Assembly (NCBI GenBank): GCA_958296135.2
Contig: CATQHZ020000001.1
Coordinates: forward strand, 3,200,001-3,264,000
DNA length: 64,000 bases
Reading direction: 5' to 3'
Source: an uncultured Poribacteria bacterium
GTDB taxonomy: Bacteria > Poribacteria > WGA-4E > WGA-3G
Numbering within the stretch: the stretch's first letter is position 1; the number at the start of each line of letters is the position of its first letter. Position numbers and translations under genes: made by a program. Below are positions 3,269 to 15,354 of the stretch, one piece after another. The notes under the pieces were generated by a model. That model was given only the letters and a program-made list of their open reading frames with translations. It did not search any database and was not told where the DNA came from.

Positions 3269-5419
3269 TCATTCCGAGGTGACTTGGGAGACTGTGCAGG
3301 TGTTCCAAATCCAGAAATGATTTTTGGTTGCCCAGTCATCATCAAGACGCACCCGTTTTTGGGGTGTGGAAATCACCTGGGTGAGGTACCCATCAGTTAC
3401 CGTCACCCGATAGGAATGCTGAATAGCGTCGTCATTTCCGGACACAGTGAGTTTTTTCAGGACTCGCGTTCCGTTCGCCCATAGGCTGAGGGTATGCGTT
3501 GCACCTTCTGATGCACAGAAGGTGTTGGTGACGCTATAGGTTCCGTTGGGAAGATCGATTTTGAAGGCCGCTTCCTCGCTGCTCCAAACAGCATCTTGGA
3601 CAGACTTCTCTCCCTCTGGCGAAGTGGGCAGTGCCTCACCGCTCCCTCCTTCTTTAGTGAACAAAGGATATTCACGGACAGCATAATTGCTTTTCCTCAG
3701 ACGATGTGCTTCGTGCGGGGCGCGCGTATCCCATCCGAATTTGCCACTGACGTAGGCTGTATTCGGGCCGATAGCGTGATAACCCCCCGCGGTTTCGGCA
3801 CCCTTCGGTTGCATATCAAAGCGGATGATGAGGTTACCTCCCTCCATCTTATCCCATAAATCAAGCTGTGGCTTATCGGCACGCTTCTTTCGGAAAAGTT
3901 GGAGGTATTTCGTCTCATGGATAATCTCATAATCTTTCGCTGTCAGTTCTGCTTCTGCCCCCGGGTCGTACCAGGCGACAACGTAATCTACCTGCACATC
4001 TTCCCTCGCGGTGTTGCGATTGACCGGAAAGTAATAGTAAGCGGATTCGTAGTTTGCGAGATGGACTACGTCATCAACATATACGCCATAAAACGCAGTA
4101 GAATGCACAAACGGCGTGACGTATTCGATCCGGCCCAATGCATCCGATTTGTGCCAGCCATCCTCGCCGGCCCGGATCTCAAACACTGTGTGCGGTTCTA
4201 TGAGATGCGTGCCGGATACTAATTCTTCAATCTCTGGTGCGATGCGTCCGTGGTCGTACGCAGTTCTGCCGCAGTGGAGCAAACAGAAGGCGATGAGACA
4301 CGTCGTGATGGCGTATCTCAGGATTTTGTTGACGTTTGTGATCAACCACGGTGCGAGCATCAGCAGGATGTAAATATGAATCCGGTCATTGATCCAACCG
4401 CCGGGGCCGTAACTCCACGGTGCCCTGATGAACATCGCGGTGAACAGCAGAGCGATTAGCAGGAACGCATCGTTCTGTTTTACCCATTCCTTGCGGCGGA
4501 TGCGGTAAACGATAGAGATAACAGTGGCCGCTCCTAACACGATGAGCAGCCCTTGGTTGACAGGGACGTGCCAATCAGTGAAATAGACGATGGACTTGAT
4601 GCCCAAAAAGTAGTCCCAAATCCACTCCATGCCGCGATGGTTTCCTGTCGGATGCTCCTTGAGGCTGAATAGGTAGTAGTCGATTAGCACAAAATACATC
4701 GGCACCATGTAGAGCCCGAAGCGGACGAGGGGTTTGAGGCTATGCCAGAGTTGTCGTATCCATTCGGCGTTTCGTTCGCGCCAAGTCGTCGCTAACGCGT
4801 TGCCGCCCCACAGACAGCCAGCGGCGATGGACATCGCCAGCACGACGAGCCCATAGGAGGCGATGTGCGACAGATATGTCAACAGCAATAGGACATAAAG
4901 TCCGGCCAGGTGCTGCACCTGCATATCGTCTTTATGCTTCCACCAGAGCCCGAAACTGAAGAAGAAAAACGCGATGCTCAGCGTGAAGTTGTAAAACCCC
5001 ATGTAGAGGAGGTAGTTGTAGGCGAATGGGAAACCGAGCCAGCCGAACATGTGCCAATTCCCGCCTTCTTCCTTCGGTTTTCCATGAACAGCGTGCAGGA
5101 AATAGAAGAACGCAATCGGTATCATCCCAATCGCTATCGTCAGGAAGACCTTTTCCGCGATGACCGGCGGACACACGTAGAGCAACCCCAGCAGCAAAAT
5201 ATGCGACAGCCAGTTCGGAAAGATGGTGATGTTGAGTTTCCACGCGTCGCGCATCTTATAGTTTTCGGGTTTCGCATATTCCTTCAGGACCAGGCCGTTG
5301 TAGACGTGGCTCGCTCCGTCTTGCGAGGGAAAATAGGCGAAAATCCAGATGGGGATGAGGTGTAATACCAGCAACGCCACAAAGAGATGTTTCCATGTCC
5401 AGTTTTTCCAATTCAACAC
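3269..5419 (-). CDS. polytopic membrane protein (GT-C-like) with C-terminal beta-sandwich/carbohydrate-binding-like domain
   Basis: Many TM segments, PSQDGASH loop, FKIDLPNGTYSV; GGAGG RBS before GTG at 5419. The upstream in-frame codons of the called 773-aa ORF belong to the RuvC N-fragment. Confidence 0.65.
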   Translation of the reverse strand: MLNWKNWTWKHLFVALLVLHLIPIWIFAYFPSQDGASHVYNGLVLKEYAKPENYKMRDAWKLNITIFPNWLSHILLLGLLYVCPPVIAEKVFLTIAIGMIPIAFFYFLHAVHGKPKEEGGNWHMFGWLGFPFAYNYLLYMGFYNFTLSIAFFFFSFGLWWKHKDDMQVQHLAGLYVLLLLTYLSHIASYGLVVLAMSIAAGCLWGGNALATTWRERNAEWIRQLWHSLKPLVRFGLYMVPMYFVLIDYYLFSLKEHPTGNHRGMEWIWDYFLGIKSIVYFTDWHVPVNQGLLIVLGAATVISIVYRIRRKEWVKQNDAFLLIALLFTAMFIRAPWSYGPGGWINDRIHIYILLMLAPWLITNVNKILRYAITTCLIAFCLLHCGRTAYDHGRIAPEIEELVSGTHLIEPHTVFEIRAGEDGWHKSDALGRIEYVTPFVHSTAFYGVYVDDVVHLANYESAYYYFPVNRNTAREDVQVDYVVAWYDPGAEAELTAKDYEIIHETKYLQLFRKKRADKPQLDLWDKMEGGNLIIRFDMQPKGAETAGGYHAIGPNTAYVSGKFGWDTRAPHEAHRLRKSNYAVREYPLFTKEGGSGEALPTSPEGEKSVQDAVWSSEEAAFKIDLPNGTYSVTNTFCASEGATHTLSLWANGTRVLKKLTVSGNDDAIQHSYRVTVTDGYLTQVISTPQKRVRLDDDWATKNHFWIWNTCTVSQVTSE

Positions 5420-5458
5420 GTTTTCCCTCCTTGTAAAGCAGTCGTAGATGTTCACCCC

Positions 5459-5557
5459 GTAATCCAGCCTAGGCTGGTAGACTGTCATCAAGACTACTCC
5501 ACAATTCTTAATACCCGAATCGACACTCAGAATTGTCACGTCTTTCTGAATTGTCAT
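5459..5557 (-). pseudogene. N-terminal 33 codons of a RuvC-family nuclease
   Basis: MTIQKDVTILSVDSGIKNCGVVLMTVYQPRLDY, matching the RuvC ILxxDxG motif; AGGAGAG RBS before ATG. Confidence 0.75.
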
Positions 5558-5685
5558 CTCTCCTGCGTTAGTAGTGGGAACACTTCCCACTTGTTAGTTA
5601 GGTTGGGCGGGACATCCGCCTCCTACCCCCAAAGCCCTCCCACACATCCGCGTGTAGGAGGGCTAATTGGGAGTATTCGGTTAGG

Positions 5686-6384
5686 TTACGGCTTGTCATT
5701 TGCCAAGCGTCGCTGAATCATCACCTTCAACATCCAATTGTCGGTTACCCAATATGTCTGAGGGTAATGCAATTTGTCGATAATATTACGCAACATCTCA
5801 AGCCATTGGTTTGTTCCGTAACGCTCAGGATCCTTCACAGGTATTCCACGATAGAGTTCCTTAAGTGCAATTAGGGCAAGTTCGGATTCAGTCATTGCAA
5901 TAATCGATAGACTGAAGTTATCGACAAGCACCACACCTATGTCTTGATCTTCGATAACACGCTTGATGTAAAGTTCCAGACCGCCCTTCATTTCATCTAA
6001 TAATGCCTTTTCACTGATACGACGATTGCCGAGAATTTTGTTGCGTTGTTCTCGTGTTATGGACTTGATGCTTTGTATGTAAGCATCAACCCAAAATTCA
6101 CGTTCGTCTTCAAAAACCATCTCAGTTTTCTTCAAAAGCAAGTGTTTTTTATCAGCGAGTCTATCGATAGATTCTTTAAATGGTCTAACACTCTCGGCAT
6201 AGTTAAAAACCAGAGGATCTCTGTAGATTGTCTCAATTCGATGTTTGACTAATTCTTGCACTGCATCAACCATCGCGGCTTTCGCTTCCGCCTTGATGCT
6301 TTCGACATCCTCTTCCGCTGCCAACACGTCCCCGACCAGTAGTGAAACTGCGACGAGTAAGATGGCAAATAAAACCCTTTTCAT
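5686..6384 (-). CDS. secreted hypothetical helical protein (cargo of insert)
   Basis: 232 aa, signal peptide MKRVLFAILLVAVSLLVGDVLA, AAGGAG RBS. Confidence 0.75.
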   Translation of the reverse strand: MKRVLFAILLVAVSLLVGDVLAAEEDVESIKAEAKAAMVDAVQELVKHRIETIYRDPLVFNYAESVRPFKESIDRLADKKHLLLKKTEMVFEDEREFWVDAYIQSIKSITREQRNKILGNRRISEKALLDEMKGGLELYIKRVIEDQDIGVVLVDNFSLSIIAMTESELALIALKELYRGIPVKDPERYGTNQWLEMLRNIIDKLHYPQTYWVTDNWMLKVMIQRRLANDKP

Positions 6385-6462
6385 TTCAAAGAACTCCTTG
6401 TGGGAACTTTTCCGACTAGTTTGTAGGGCGGGACACGTATGCCCCGCCGTGCGACTACCCCG

Positions 6463-7020
6463 TTACTCATCGAAGAGTTCGGGGGAGCTATCGGACTTCA
6501 ACCAATCTAGTTGCGTCCCTTGTTTATGCCAAGTCGTCTGTCGACGTAGGGTTAGAACCTCGAAGACAAACCTTGACTTTTGACTAATCACGGGGTGCAA
6601 GCGTTCAAGCGGTATGTGCCGCTTGTGTTGCAGAACCTCCGAAGCGTAAAATCCGACATAGGCAGTCGCCGCCGCGTCCGTGATATGGTGAGTGTTATCC
6701 GTAAACTGAGTCAACGCATATACGGCGATGGCGACTTCAACCTTACTTGCATTTGGGTTTGATGTCAGCAACCGCTTTGTAAGTTTAGCTGGCACAAAGA
6801 GTGCAGAGATTTTCAAATCCTCTGCCATCTCTGCCAAACCTAGTGACAGATGTCCCATCGAATCGTTGGGGAGGACGTTGCCTTTGACAGGCAGACGACC
6901 CTCGATGCACATTCCTCCGATGTTGAGATCACGATATACCTCCAACTCACCTTTGTAGTTGGTGATGCGCCGGATCCTGACTTGTGTGGCATCGGGCGAT
7001 TCCGAACGACGAAGGTGAAT
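6463..7020 (-). pseudogene. C-terminal 185 codons of a RuvC-family nuclease
   Basis: Open frame from just after the nth stop; CIEG, PAKLTKRLLTSNPNASKVEV and HITDAAATA match RuvC motifs; lacks the first catalytic Asp. Confidence 0.8.
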
Positions 7021-7026
7021 GTAGTC

Positions 7027-7698
7027 TTATCCGATGCCTGTCTCCTCGGCGAAATAGAGGCAATGCGCTGTCAGCGGGCATTTTTCGCACAACGGCTTCC
7101 GCGCGTTGCAAATCTGCCTGCCGAAGTAGATAAGGTTCATGTGAAACGGGTACGCCTTTCCTTCCGGTACGATGGGTGGCAGCACTTGATGCGCTTTCTC
7201 CGCGCTACAATTCTGCGGGATGAAGCCGAGACGTTTGGAAATCCGCAGAATGTGCGTATCCACGGGGAAAACTTCTCTGCCGCACGCGAAGGAGAGCACC
7301 ACCGAGGCGGTTTTGATGCCGATGCCTTTGTGTTGACACAGCAATGCTAACGCCGCTTCGGTTTCCATGTCGTGGATAAACGCCAGGGATAAATCGCCGT
7401 GTTCTTCCTTCAGCCACGCGAGGAAGTTTTTAATGGTGCGGCTTTTCTGTTTCGAGAGCCCCGCGATGCGGATTGCATCGATGATGTCCGATTCATCGGC
7501 ATGCAACACAGCCTCCCACGTTGGAAAATGTTCACGGAGGCGCGCGTAGCCTTTGTCGCGGCTGACATCTGTCGTGTTTTGCGACAACACCGTTAAGATG
7601 AGGCTATCGAGGACGTTTTCAGGGCCGCCCCGTGTCGGCACGCCGAGCAACGCCTCTAGCGCATCGGATATGATTGCGGCTTTTTGCTTCAATTCCAA
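7027..7698 (-). CDS. nth: endonuclease III / HhH-GPD glycosylase
   Basis: LSQNTTD, KGIGIKTA HhH, PVDTH, C-x6-C-x2-C-x5-C Fe-S motif. Confidence 0.9.
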   Translation of the reverse strand: MELKQKAAIISDALEALLGVPTRGGPENVLDSLILTVLSQNTTDVSRDKGYARLREHFPTWEAVLHADESDIIDAIRIAGLSKQKSRTIKNFLAWLKEEHGDLSLAFIHDMETEAALALLCQHKGIGIKTASVVLSFACGREVFPVDTHILRISKRLGFIPQNCSAEKAHQVLPPIVPEGKAYPFHMNLIYFGRQICNARKPLCEKCPLTAHCLYFAEETGIG

Positions 7699-7877: not shown

Positions 7878-9338
7878 TCAAAAACTAAGCGGCAACGTGC
7901 GCAGGAGCGGCTTCCCCGTATAGGGGTTAATCATATCCGGTAGCCGCGGTATCTTCTCCTGAAATCGGCTCTCAACCGAATAGAGTTGGACGCGCGGGAA
8001 CACGTGGTTGCCTATCTGCACCGTGCCGAGTTTCGCCGTTTCGTTCTGCGCTGCCGGTGAAGTGACATCCTCCAGCGTCACATAGATACCCATCACGGCG
8101 TTTTCACGTTGCACGACATGCAGGAAATCGCGCAGCTGACTCAGCGAGAATTTCCCACTCTTTACCTGAGCGAGGACGACCTTGGTATAGTCCCCATCCG
8201 GTGTTTCCAGCGTATTCCCGATGCCATCGATGCCGCCATCTGCGCCGCCGCGCTCGTTCGGCGCGAGGCCGGGGATGAGGTTAATCGCCCATATCTCAAA
8301 GTGTCGGCGGTTCTCACGAGCAAGCCGCGTCGCGCTGGCCAGATCAGCTGGCACGCCGTAGGTTGGGATGTTCCGGCCGGGAAATCGCTGAGTTTTGATG
8401 ACATCCAGCGCGGACGGATTGATGTCAATACCAATCCATTTGCGGTTGAGGGTATCGGCGGCGACGACAGTAGTCCCGCAGCCACAGAACGGGTCCAGCA
8501 CAATATCGCCTTCGTTTGACGATGCTCTGATAATACGCTCAAGAAGCGCGAGCGGTTTCTGTGTGCCATAACCGAGCCGCTCCTTAGACTGCGTCTGACC
8601 GAGGGAGTGAATATCGTTCCACCAACTCGGAATTGCGCGCCCTGGGGATTCATCAAGGTAACTTCTGCCGCCGGGATATTCTTTGTAGGCTCTCCCCGCT
8701 TCATCTACCTTGTTGAACTTTTTCACCGCCGCTGCTGTCAACGCGGTGTAGGGCCGGTGAAACACCGCTTCTTTTTCGGACATGCCGTAGAACAAGATGA
8801 TGTCATGCTTGCGATGGAAGCCGAACTTGGGCCCCTGTCCGCCGGGGGGATAACACCACACAATTTCATTCCTGAAATTCTTTGTCCCGAATATTCCATC
8901 CATCAGCAGCTTGAGATAGTGGCTTGCTGTCGCATCGCAGTGGAGATAGATGCTGCCAGTGGGTTTGAGAACGCGATGGATTTCCAGCAACCGGAGTGCC
9001 ATGTAACTGACATAAGCCATCATCCCACAGTCGCCGAGAATCTGGTGCAACCCACCGATGACTTTGTGAATTGGCGAGGCAACCATGCCGGTGAGTTCAT
9101 CGACACGCGCCTGCGCATCGGGGCTCCAGTGCCACGTATCGTCAAACGCTTTGAGTGAGGCGGCCCGGGTGCCCTTGTTGGGTCCCTCTTCAATCGCGTA
9201 AAGTTGGTTATATTTCTGCTTGGAATTGAACGGCGGATCGCCGTAGACGATGTCCACCCAATTGTCGGGCCATTGGCGGAGAATGTGTAGGTTATCTCCG
9301 TAGTGGAGGCTGTTCAGTTCCGGAATTGTTAAGTGCAT
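7878..9338 (-). CDS. amino-DNA methyltransferase fused to Mrr-like PD-(D/E)xK endonuclease
   Basis: DPPF, TQKP, DPFCGCGTT; C-terminal DGGIDG...AQVK. Confidence 0.85.
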   Translation of the reverse strand: MHLTIPELNSLHYGDNLHILRQWPDNWVDIVYGDPPFNSKQKYNQLYAIEEGPNKGTRAASLKAFDDTWHWSPDAQARVDELTGMVASPIHKVIGGLHQILGDCGMMAYVSYMALRLLEIHRVLKPTGSIYLHCDATASHYLKLLMDGIFGTKNFRNEIVWCYPPGGQGPKFGFHRKHDIILFYGMSEKEAVFHRPYTALTAAAVKKFNKVDEAGRAYKEYPGGRSYLDESPGRAIPSWWNDIHSLGQTQSKERLGYGTQKPLALLERIIRASSNEGDIVLDPFCGCGTTVVAADTLNRKWIGIDINPSALDVIKTQRFPGRNIPTYGVPADLASATRLARENRRHFEIWAINLIPGLAPNERGGADGGIDGIGNTLETPDGDYTKVVLAQVKSGKFSLSQLRDFLHVVQRENAVMGIYVTLEDVTSPAAQNETAKLGTVQIGNHVFPRVQLYSVESRFQEKIPRLPDMINPYTGKPLLRTLPLSF

Positions 9339-10460: not shown

Positions 10461-11818
10461 CCGTTGGGGGCGAGACTGCTAGGCGCGGCTTCCCGCCGTG
10501 TCTCTCGCCCCACCTATCTAGCAGAAGGTGACAACCAACTGGAACGGTGACTCTATGGCACTACGAGCCCAGAAGATAGCACTCAATCCAACTGAGGAAC
10601 AGGTCGAGGCATTTAACCGGCATGTGCAATTCGCACGCGCCGCCTATAATGCCGCGCATTCGGATTGGAACGCCGACCGCCGTAACTCTCTCTACGATTT
10701 GAAGAAAATCTTCAACTCACGGAAGCGCGAGGTGTTCCCCGAATTCGCCGCGTGTTCTCAAAACGTAGGCAAGAATGCTATCCACGCTTTCGGTGATGCT
10801 ATCGCCAGATACAAATCGGGACAGAATGGTGCGCCCAAACGGAAGACGCATAAGTCTGCCCCTGCGTTCCAGATTGATAATGGTGTCAATACTGTCAAAA
10901 TGACGGCGGACGGTAAACACGTCGTCCTCCCGATAATTGGACAGGTTAGGTTGCATGAAACCCCTCGATGGACAGGTGAAGTTCGCCGTGCTTTCGTCAA
11001 GCGAATCGCACATCGCTGGTATCTCAGCATCCTTGTCGAAGTTGATGTCCCTGAACTGCCTGACACGTCAGCACTGCCCCCTGCAGGTTGTGATGTCGGC
11101 ATCTCTGCCCTCGCCACGATGGACGATGGCACTGTCTACGAAAATCCGCGTGCCTTGCGCGTCAATGAACGCAAACTACGTCGCGCAAATAAGGCACTCG
11201 CCCGCAAGACGTTCCTGAGCCGCAACTGGTGGAAGGCGAAGGAACGCCTCGCCCGCCTGCATGCCCGTATCGCAAATGTGCGAACCGATGCGCATCATCA
11301 GGCAACACATCGCATTCTGAAAGGCATTTCAGCACTTGGGATTGAAAGCCTCACCGTCAAAGGTTTGATGAAAAATCGCAAGCTTAGCAAGGCACTCGCT
11401 GACGCAAGCCTCGGTGGTTTTCTCGTCAAACTTAAATACAAAGCGGTGCGCCGGGGTATCCGTATTGTGTCAGCAGATAAGTTCTGGCCGTCAACACAAC
11501 GATGCAGTTCCTGTGGCTACGTCAAACGTGGCGAATTCAAACTGACGCTCAAGGACAGAGAATACCACTGCGGTATCTGCGGATTGGTAGAGGACAGAGA
11601 CGTTAACGCCGCTATAAACCTTCGACAACTCGCCTCAAGCACTGAGGAGAGCCAAAACGCCTGTGGAGATGCTGTAACACCTACCCTGGTAGGCTGGCAT
11701 CAGAACCCGCTTGTGCGCGGAAGAAGCAGGAAACCGCTGACCGAACAGAGACTCGTAGACTTTGCACATGGCAGATAAGTCTACATTTGACGAGATGCTC
11801 ATAGGTTATGTAGTGCGG
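10461..11818 (+). mobile_element. TnpB-only IS200/IS605/IS607-superfamily element (ends approximate)
   Basis: 5' hairpin TGGGGGCGAGA/TCTCGCCCCA, tnpB, 3' GCCTGTGGAG...AAGCAGGAA...TAGGTTATGTAGTGCGG omega-RNA-like tail; no tnpA. Confidence 0.6.
10555..11778 (+). CDS. tnpB: RNA-guided endonuclease TnpB
   Basis: GCDVG, GIESL and DRDVNAA RuvC triad; CSSC/CGIC zinc finger; N-terminal HTH. Confidence 0.95.
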   Translation: MALRAQKIALNPTEEQVEAFNRHVQFARAAYNAAHSDWNADRRNSLYDLKKIFNSRKREVFPEFAACSQNVGKNAIHAFGDAIARYKSGQNGAPKRKTHKSAPAFQIDNGVNTVKMTADGKHVVLPIIGQVRLHETPRWTGEVRRAFVKRIAHRWYLSILVEVDVPELPDTSALPPAGCDVGISALATMDDGTVYENPRALRVNERKLRRANKALARKTFLSRNWWKAKERLARLHARIANVRTDAHHQATHRILKGISALGIESLTVKGLMKNRKLSKALADASLGGFLVKLKYKAVRRGIRIVSADKFWPSTQRCSSCGYVKRGEFKLTLKDREYHCGICGLVEDRDVNAAINLRQLASSTEESQNACGDAVTPTLVGWHQNPLVRGRSRKPLTEQRLVDFAHGR

Positions 11819-13857: not shown

Positions 13858-14427
13858 ATGAATCTACTAGAATTGAACCAATTCGCGCAAGAAGGGATCC
13901 TCCCCGAAAACGTCACGATGACGTTGGAGGAATTCCTCGCAAACGACGTAGAAGGATACGAATACGTTAATGGAGAATTAATACCCAGGCCCGGGACATC
14001 ACTAGAACACGGTTCGATCGGGGCGAATGTTTTTCGGTACTTAGACCGGTATGTCTACGAGAAGCAGCTTGGCAAAGTGTATTTCTCGGAAACGGGCTTC
14101 CAAGTCAACGAGCGTGTGCTCAAACCGGATATCGCTTTTCTTTCCACCGAGCGAATTCCCGAAGACCAGCGCAAGGCATCCCCTGTTCCACCAGACCTGG
14201 CGATTGAGGTAGTGTCCCCGTCAGACGCGTGGGATCGCGTTGAAGAAAAGGCGTTTGCCTATCTGGCAGCTGGCACACGAATGGTATGGGTTTTCAAACC
14301 TATCTCACAGACTGTGACGGTGTATCGCTCCAGAACCGACATCAAGTTGCTGACTTGCAATGATACCCTTACCGGTGAGGATGCCGTTGAAGGGTTTTCC
14401 TGTCAGGTGGCACTGCTGTTTGAATAG
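13858..14427 (+). CDS. Uma2 (DUF820) family endonuclease-like protein
   Basis: YEYVNGEL, KPDIAF, PDLAIEVVSPSD; GGAGG RBS. Confidence 0.9.
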   Translation: MNLLELNQFAQEGILPENVTMTLEEFLANDVEGYEYVNGELIPRPGTSLEHGSIGANVFRYLDRYVYEKQLGKVYFSETGFQVNERVLKPDIAFLSTERIPEDQRKASPVPPDLAIEVVSPSDAWDRVEEKAFAYLAAGTRMVWVFKPISQTVTVYRSRTDIKLLTCNDTLTGEDAVEGFSCQVALLFE

Positions 14428-14490: not shown

Positions 14491-15354
14491 ATGGACAACA
14501 CGAAAGAACGGAAGGTTGCGAATCGGAAGGAAAAAGCGGCGCAGCGCGGTAAACACTATTACACCGATAATCACACCTTTCAGCGGAAAAATACGCCGTG
14601 CCCCGCGGAATTCACCGATAAAATCATCTGCGGCGATTCGCTCCAGGTGCTGAAAGCACTACCGGATAATTGCATCGATCTCGTCTTTACTTCGCCGCCC
14701 TACAACTTCGGCTTGGATTACAAGCAGACCGGGGATGCCTTTGCGTGGGAAGTCTACTTTGAGGAACTGTTCCGCATCTTTGATGAGTGCATCCGAACGC
14801 TGAAGTTTGGCGGCCGCATCGTCGTGAACGTGCAACCGCTGTTCTCGGATTATATTCCGACGCACCATATCGTTTCGCAGTTCTTTATGGACAGAAAACT
14901 CATCTGGAAAGGCGAAATTTTGTGGGAGAAAAACCACTACAATTGCAAGTATACCGCTTGGGGCAGCTGGAAAAGTCCGTCCAGTCCCTATCTCAAATAT
15001 ACGTGGGAGTTTTTGGAAATATTTTGCAAGGGGAGTCTGAAAAAGGCGGGCAGCCCTGCCGATGCAGACATTGACGCTGAGTCATTTAAAAAATGGGTAT
15101 CGGCGAAATGGACCATCGCGCCGGAGCGGCAGATGCACAAATTCGAGCATCCGGCGATGTTTCCGGAGGAATTAGCGTATCGGGTGCTGAAGTTGTTCAG
15201 TTTCAAAGGCGATGTAATTCTTGATCCCTTCGCTGGCGTGGGGACGACGTGTGTTGCGGCGCGTAAGACAGAGCGGCACTTCTTGGGGATAGACATTTCG
15301 CCGGATTATTGCCGAACCGCCGAGGCGCGATTGCATCAAATCTTACCTATGTAG
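14491..15354 (+). CDS. orphan N4-C/N6-A DNA methyltransferase (beta class)
   Basis: TSPPY, HPAMFP, DPFAGVGTT. Confidence 0.9.
   Translation: MDNTKERKVANRKEKAAQRGKHYYTDNHTFQRKNTPCPAEFTDKIICGDSLQVLKALPDNCIDLVFTSPPYNFGLDYKQTGDAFAWEVYFEELFRIFDECIRTLKFGGRIVVNVQPLFSDYIPTHHIVSQFFMDRKLIWKGEILWEKNHYNCKYTAWGSWKSPSSPYLKYTWEFLEIFCKGSLKKAGSPADADIDAESFKKWVSAKWTIAPERQMHKFEHPAMFPEELAYRVLKLFSFKGDVILDPFAGVGTTCVAARKTERHFLGIDISPDYCRTAEARLHQILPM

Follow-up and report, generated by a model that had tools for sequence, protein, structure and literature searches.

How does a gene for a RuvC-like nuclease come to lie in a bacterial chromosome as two pieces in reverse order, with another gene between them? This arrangement is found on the minus strand of the 64,000-nucleotide stretch of an uncultured Poribacteria genome analysed here (the window; positions 3,200,001 to 3,264,000 of contig CATQHZ020000001.1), where an insert separates the endonuclease III gene nth from a conserved membrane-protein gene. 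The observation is real and unusual, and the assignment of the gene to RuvC and its permutation are both well supported. We think it rather probable, with no great confidence, that the insert is a circular DNA that integrated by a single crossover inside its own RuvC-like gene. The features of the locus are as follows, with positions counted from the first nucleotide of the window.

7027..7698, minus strand: nth (endonuclease III family; Pfam HhH-GPD, E 3.7e-16), the host gene on the upstream side
7018..7029, minus strand: left junction 12-mer TAAGACTACATT, with the nth stop inside it; the putative crossover would lie here or a few bases away
6463..7020, minus strand: C-part of the RuvC-like gene, 185 codons plus stop, its 5' end without a start codon
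6385..6462, minus strand: spacer 1, 78 nt, with a GC-rich hairpin, the 18-nt motif and an AAGGAG ribosome-binding site before the cargo ATG
6417-6400, minus strand: motif copy before the cargo gene, AGTCGGAAAAGTTCCCAC
5686..6384, minus strand: cargo open reading frame (ORF), 232 residues, an orphan with an N-terminal signal-peptide-like helix
5558..5685, minus strand: spacer 2, 128 nt, with three hairpins, including a terminator-like stem of 21 pairs, and a motif copy before the N-part ATG
5591-5574, minus strand: that motif copy, a perfect palindromic hairpin, AGTGGGAAGTGTTCCCAC
5438..5557, minus strand: N-part of the RuvC-like gene, 40 codons from the ATG at 5557, covering strands beta1-beta3 and D13
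5435..5446, minus strand: right junction 12-mer TACGACTGCTTT
3269..5419, minus strand: conserved 716-residue membrane-protein gene, GTG at 5419, flanking the insert downstream as a host gene

All feature positions of the first-pass annotation were found where it had placed them. The TAA stop of nth (7029-7027) is followed by GACTAC (7026-7021), and nth and the C-part share a reading frame. The C-part lies inside an open frame of 187 codons (7026-6466) closed by a stop at 6465-6463, and it carries the active-site residues E, K, K, H and D and a C-terminal extension. At the other end, the ATG of the N-part is preceded by AGGAG, and its frame reads ...RLDY at 5459 and enters the membrane-protein gene without a stop. 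Readthrough from the N-part (5557-3269, minus strand) would lengthen the N-terminus of the membrane protein by ~46 residues. That the C-part shares the frame of nth (7698-6463, minus strand; split by the TAA only) and the N-part that of the membrane-protein gene, so that each junction is in frame with its host neighbour, is probably a coincidence, of about 1 in 18 by rough estimate. The order on the minus strand is thus C-part, cargo, N-part; in an intact gene, N precedes C.

Do the two pieces belong to one gene? With the C-part as query, a full HMMER search returned three matches among 1.84 billion representative proteins, namely the piece itself (as a 149-residue gene call), P0004 (229 residues, 53% identity, E 1.8e-40, residues 21-174 of the C-part on 73-226 of P0004) and P0005 (287 residues, E 9e-15). 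A profile search added P0006, P0007 and P0008, of 226-233 residues each, which brings the family to six members in the collections searched, including five intact homologues of 226-287 residues. The contigs that carry P0004 to P0008 come from ENA and Logan and measure 3029, 5175, 39679, 2445 and 10266 nt, respectively. In its 33-residue version, the N-part aligned with residues 14-41 of P0004 (BLASTP E 2e-7), and BLASTP of these 33 residues against P0005, the most distant member, gave no alignment. Positions 14-57 of the family profile fall on the N-part and positions 62-230 on the C-part (187 bits). When the whole 5.19-Mb genome was scanned with the profile in six frames (121,000 frames of 25 residues or more), four frames matched at E <= 10: the C-part (E 1.1e-54), the RuvC of the host (E 1.5e-4), the frame of the N-part (E 5.8e-4) and a fourth frame (E 0.57). 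Because both pieces match the same homologues colinearly, N then C, they are the halves of one gene in circularly permuted order. This agrees with what the first-pass annotation had claimed, and both halves match P0004 and the family profile rather than different homologues. The pieces contain no stops and, of the 52 columns invariant among the five intact homologues, retain 43, all catalytic positions included. Such limited decay suggests that the event was recent or that the pieces are still constrained.

We then asked what kind of protein the gene would encode. The Pfam RuvC family (PF02075) matches four of the five homologues at 13.1-20.9 bits, under its cut-off of 22.2, and gives no match for P0008 or for the window C-part. 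PHROG 159, 'RuvC-like Holliday junction resolvase', matches all five homologues (E 5.9e-6 to 8.9e-9) and the window C-part with an E of 0.025. Alignment of the family with canonical RuvC (six genes from relatives) using hhalign gave a probability of 96.3% (E 1.8e-9, 148 columns). Family residues D26, E92, K134, K145, H165 and D168 align with the invariants D7, E67, K108, K119, H140 and D143 of the host RuvC, and the residues that had been proposed from the sequence for a 218-residue join (D13, E73, K115, K126, H145 and D148) are confirmed as the counterparts of the canonical D, E, K, K, H and D. Thermus RuvC has a His in place of one Asp. The window retains the full catalytic tetrad D-E-(D/H)-D in divided form: the N-part supplies the first D, the C-part the other three residues (E, H and D). 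With the first catalytic Asp apart from the Glu, His and Asp, neither piece alone is predicted to be an active nuclease.

The fold was tested on the homologue P0004, not on the split window gene. Its AlphaFold2 model (pLDDT 63.6, pTM 0.64) has the order beta-beta-beta-alpha-beta-alpha-beta-alpha, and the top 10 Foldseek matches in the PDB are all bacterial RuvC (E 2.4e-10 to 1e-7, TM on target 0.65-0.75). The best viral fold matches are phage RuvC-like resolvases of ~190-230 residues, and the neighbours of the family in the protein atlas are RuvC-like clusters, about half of them viral. Thus, the RuvC assignment of the first-pass annotation was upheld by hhalign, Foldseek and PHROG 159, and the gene is a predicted phage-type RuvC-like Holliday-junction resolvase. 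With the phage RuvC-like resolvases (PHROG 159; Mycobacterium phage Arbiter; Lactococcus phage 67 RuvC, PDB 4ktw) it has in common the RNase H-like fold, as seen in the P0004 model, the residues D, E, H and D, the size of 190-230 residues, and the profile and fold matches. In contrast to them, the window gene is in two permuted pieces with another gene between, whereas its five homologues are intact, and the small family falls under the Pfam cut-off and has a conserved C-terminal extension of ~50 residues. Pfam, NCBIfam and PADLOC gave no match for the C-part, the N-part or the cargo, and a PDB sequence search with the C-part gave a single, meaningless match (E 0.92). The family-library scans of the pieces and homologues matched no integrase family, and Pfam scans of the same sequences found no second Tnp-like domain (Transposase_20).

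Weak profile matches in relatives turned out to be the canonical RuvC of these hosts (11 loci read) or RuvC-like domains of long helicase-TPR proteins, which are not members of the family. The latter are proteins of ~1100-1470 residues that combine a UvrD-like helicase, a RuvC-like domain with a weak match to the family profile and many TPR-like repeats (L029 1-3336 in G107; similar in G090, G105, G086, G119, G111 and G082).

Is the insert native to the locus? Among 19 loci from relatives of the same order, none contains the C-part, the N-part or the cargo, and all have nth directly upstream of the membrane-protein gene, with spacers of 22-286 nt. In a second set of 53 loci from Candidatus Poribacteria species genomes, which overlaps the first, no locus contains any piece of the insert and nth lies directly upstream of the membrane-protein gene in 52; the gap there is 3-286 nt, most commonly 29 nt, one locus (L102) being omitted from this range for a nonsensical gap value. 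The insert is single-copy within its own genome, the RuvC-like family is present in 1 of the 176 genomes of the phylum searched, and the GC content of the cargo is ~0.40 as against ~0.53 in the surrounding host DNA. The insert is therefore foreign and specific to this genome, and its placement at the nth-membrane junction by the first-pass annotation holds, this junction being conserved in all relatives searched. The spacer varies widely even in two close relatives (71 and 286 nt). Since the spacers of the two same-genus genomes are unalignable to the window apart from the ribosome-binding site, the comparison bounds the insert only to ~5433 through the end of nth.

What holds the parts of the insert together? 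Both of its start codons are preceded by a GC-rich hairpin, the 18-nt motif AGTSGGAANNGTTCCCAC, whose pattern can also be written AGTSGGAA..GTTCCCAC, and a ribosome-binding site. The motif occurs at these two sites only in 5.19 Mb; for the palindromic copy (5574-5591), the genome scan gave one additional match with 1 mismatch on the opposite strand. Because motif and hairpin precede both starts and are found nowhere else in the genome, the RuvC-like and cargo genes form one unit. The hairpin-plus-motif pattern had no match in IMG/VR, and the one match in JGI metagenomes (L048) is put down to chance, as it shares nothing more with the insert.

The RNA of spacer 2 folds with -61.4 kcal/mol (z -5.18), and none of 200 shuffles was as stable. 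An Rfam scan of 5300-7200 at E <= 1 found no RNA family, no dedicated tRNA search being made, and comparison of spacers and junctions showed no complementarity beyond chance-level repeats. For the cargo, the search of the protein collection returned only the self-match; no usable relative was found in the protein atlas and none in 158 other genomes of the order or, by tblastn, in the phage and plasmid collections. Its single-sequence AF2 model (pLDDT 41) was unusable. The contig of run X4 (see below) has one extra T behind 5813 in the cargo that would shift the frame and that is absent in X1 and X3; a homopolymer error or a genuine variant would account for it.

Could the arrangement be spurious? 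Either a misassembly or a chance resemblance of the 40-codon N-part to a RuvC N-terminus would account for it, and we regard both together as very unlikely. Logan contigs of three runs (X1, X3 and X4) each span the integrated form, agree in its arrangement and differ at 0-2 single bases within the 3101 compared. A misassembly, envisaged in the first-pass annotation, is thus at odds with three separately assembled runs that agree, although all runs compared stem from one sample, which is probably the source of the assembly. A further run, X5, yielded only two 151-nt pieces of nth. The sole alternative joint in the contigs lies inside nth and comes from a diverged, low-depth contig. As for coincidence, the match of the N-part to P0004 and its E value over the 121,000 frames argue against it, as does the upstream motif that it shares with the cargo gene.

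At which point were the halves joined? The first-pass annotation had joined 5459 to 7020, which gives a 218-residue ORF and a circle of 1562 bp, and had taken what follows LDY for host sequence. That join is indeed in frame. However, the ungapped alignment of the family profile with the frame of the N-part begins two residues ahead of the ATG, takes in GVNIYDC and reaches ...RLDYGVNIYDCFT, so that it continues for 7-10 codons after LDY. Joining 5438 to 7020 gives a 225-residue ORF that aligns as a single domain on profile positions 16-230 and scores 218.7 bits, compared with 202.6 bits for the shorter join, a gain of 16 bits; end points between 5459 and 5438 score intermediate bits. Random 7-residue fillers from the window gave a mean of 209.3 bits (sd 2.6), and 6 of 2000 reached 218.7. 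The fit of the profile up to 5438 therefore makes a unit of 1583 bp with a 225-residue ORF the more likely one, and the exact point proposed earlier would be 21 nt off. The rejoined 225 residues correspond to the family length (226-233). With the corrected join, the reconstructed empty site measures 24 nt instead of the ~45 nt given before; in relatives, this spacer usually has 22-30 nt. The break lies in the loop that connects strand beta3 to the first helix, and nowhere is the family alignment more variable than in the protein segment around the crossover.

Two sequence signals at the ends were considered and set aside. The GAYTAC repeat (5/6) reported by the first-pass annotation is at chance level. 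A 14-nt perfect palindrome in the N-part, CCAGCCTAGGCTGG (5464-5477), was rejected as a mark of the crossover: it is 21 nt off the corrected join, and the 64-kb window holds 5 such palindromes where 4.0 are expected. A further signal, the pair GGTGAA (5451-5456) and TTCACC (7014-7019), lies near both ends of the insert in the chromosome; in the reconstructed circle it would bracket the crossover as 6-bp inverted repeats 14 nt apart. It is close to chance level, a 1-in-20 event by rough estimate.

What process best explains these data? The simplest origin of a permutation that is of unit length, in frame and colinear is one crossover joining a circle to the chromosome. A circular DNA would have recombined once with the chromosome at a point inside the RuvC-like gene, in the loop past strand beta3, and by the nth stop, with a match of at most 9/12 between the two sites; the integrated order would then be C-part, cargo, N-part. 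The circle may have comprised just the two genes (1583 bp), or it may have been a bigger phage or plasmid that subsequently lost its other genes. In the latter case, the lost stretch would have extended from the cargo terminator to the motif that precedes the RuvC-like gene, and the deletion may have come about by way of the repeated motif copies. The compact layout, with two genes, tends to favour a small circle; the presence of P0006, which is intact, on a 39.7-kb contig and the phage-like fold neighbours tend to favour a larger parent. Most likely, the crossover was a one-off illegitimate or trans-catalysed event and not one programmed by the element. Illegitimate, microhomology-based integration of a circle, known from the chance capture of plasmid or phage DNA, likewise leaves a unit-length permuted copy with very short, imperfect homology and occurs singly. 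It is a class of accidents, and the break within the nuclease gene would be explained only by the share of this gene in the circle, 43% (678/1583 bp).

Several points weigh against an integrated circle. Neither the circle junction nor the empty site, both of which the first-pass annotation had proposed to look for, was found in the contigs of the sample, which drop rare variants, and the three agreeing runs are not independent of the assembly. A 1.58-kb circle without a replication gene has no obvious means of persistence, and the larger-parent version requires a clean internal deletion as a further event. The junction 12-mers (7029-7018 and 5446-5435) match at 9/12, the best of 1500 pairs of 12-mers, among which ~0.59 matches of 9/12 or better are expected by chance; the junction thus neither supports nor locates a specific site and says little on the mechanism. 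In addition, the correction of the join relies on a profile of five sequences only.

The same permutation could have arisen without a circle if the gene pair had been inserted in normal order and permuted in place later, for instance by a tandem duplication and two deletions. A neighbourhood rich in mobile and defence genes (GmrSD, MTase-Mrr fusion, TnpB, Uma2) and a spacer as variable among close relatives as described above would suit such a local rearrangement. In contrast, both deletions would need end points no more than about a codon apart, and none of the parts has left a second copy behind. We hold this route to be quite unlikely.

Integration of a circle also leaves the question of whether the crossover was programmed. 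The RuvC-like protein, alone or with the cargo protein, might recombine a chromosomal site with an attP inside its ORF; only in the circle would the nuclease gene be whole, and integration would in this sense be suicidal. We consider this unlikely. Consistent with it, the join restores one frame of family length with all catalytic residues, the unit is compact, with two same-strand genes behind the same element-specific motif, and the inverted repeat GGTGAA/TTCACC would surround the crossover in the circle. On the other hand, there is a single copy in a single genome, and no other split or truncated member of the family was found among the 1.84 billion representative proteins. The five relatives are intact, and the 39.7-kb contig that carries one of them is far above 1.6 kb. 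The crossover region, being the least conserved of the family, holds no conserved attP, the match at the junction is at chance level, and neither a Tnp-like second domain nor an Rfam RNA was detected. The neighbours by fold and profile are phage resolvases, enzymes that cut junctions and are not known to perform strand exchange or DNA integration. Finally, a split recombinase would be unable to re-excise the element. The claim of the first-pass annotation that the insert represents a family of elements integrating through their own nuclease gene, with the RuvC-like protein as recombinase, was thus not sustained by one copy in 1 of 176 genomes and relatives that are all intact.

Wider searches returned no second case. 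Scans with the family alignment gave pattern matches in GTDB genome contigs (54), IMG/VR (27) and JGI metagenomes (147), none of which encodes a relative, and tblastn of P0004 against phage and plasmid collections gave no match. Searches of the literature brought up no description of a RuvC-like gene that integration had split, and nothing on mobile elements of Poribacteria with a bearing on this case.

How does the locus compare with known integrating elements? Insertion sequences of the IS110/IS1111 group, with DEDD (bridge) recombinases, have a RuvC-like domain, a length of ~1.5 kb and a circular intermediate whose junction switches on expression; they also have a second Tnp domain and a guide RNA, their gene is whole when integrated, and they are usually multi-copy. 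The insert resembles them in its RuvC-like catalytic domain and similar size, but no Tnp domain and no known RNA family were found in it, it is single-copy and its gene is split. Closer in geometry are the SSV1-type ('type I', suicidal) integrases. In these, which belong to archaeal viruses and plasmids, the element is flanked by the N- and C-parts of its own integrase gene, which is whole only in the circle (PMC7253208). They are tyrosine recombinases whose gene contains the attP; they target tRNA genes, with long identical cores, and have left many integrated copies. The same paper describes them as confined to archaea to date. As in that type, the gene is split to both ends of the element, here with the C-part on the nth side and the N-part on the side of the membrane-protein gene, and this likeness counts in favour of a programmed event. 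Unlike it, the insert involves a RuvC fold, a bacterial host, a target by the nth stop, 9/12 homology and one copy.

The consequences depend on which of these origins applies. As a circle that entered a bacterial chromosome through its own coding sequence, the permuted gene between two conserved host genes would be a rare and clean record of such an event. If it was a one-off accident, it illustrates one way in which genes of phage type and orphan secreted proteins come into the genome of an uncultured symbiont of sponges, with an entry that kills the nuclease carried along. It is unlikely that the locus represents a ~1.6-kb bacterial mini-element that integrates via a site in its own RuvC-like gene and makes the nuclease only from the excised circle. 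If it did, it would be the equivalent, with a RuvC fold, of the suicidal tyrosine integrases of archaea and the first sign of a stand-alone RuvC-like protein acting as an integrase. Recurrence at the same codon would extend the 'suicidal recombinase' design, up to now described for archaeal tyrosine integrases only (PMC7253208), to bacteria and to another fold, and would raise the question of whether small RuvC-like proteins integrate DNA.

The window is rich in defence and mobile genes around the insert (6-1832, 7878-9338, 10528-11778, 13858-14427 and 14491-15354); they comprise a GmrSD-type restriction enzyme, a fusion of a DNA methylase with an Mrr-like nuclease, TnpB (IS605 OrfB), a Uma2-family nuclease and a second DNA methylase. 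The nth-membrane spacers of relatives have peculiarities of their own. The 286-nt spacer of the same-genus genome G002 (L005 3660-3900) contains four GC-rich palindromic REP-like repeats of ~30 nt, unrelated to the insert, and in two other relatives (L010 and L013) the first ~45 nt of the membrane-protein gene are present twice in tandem upstream of the gene.

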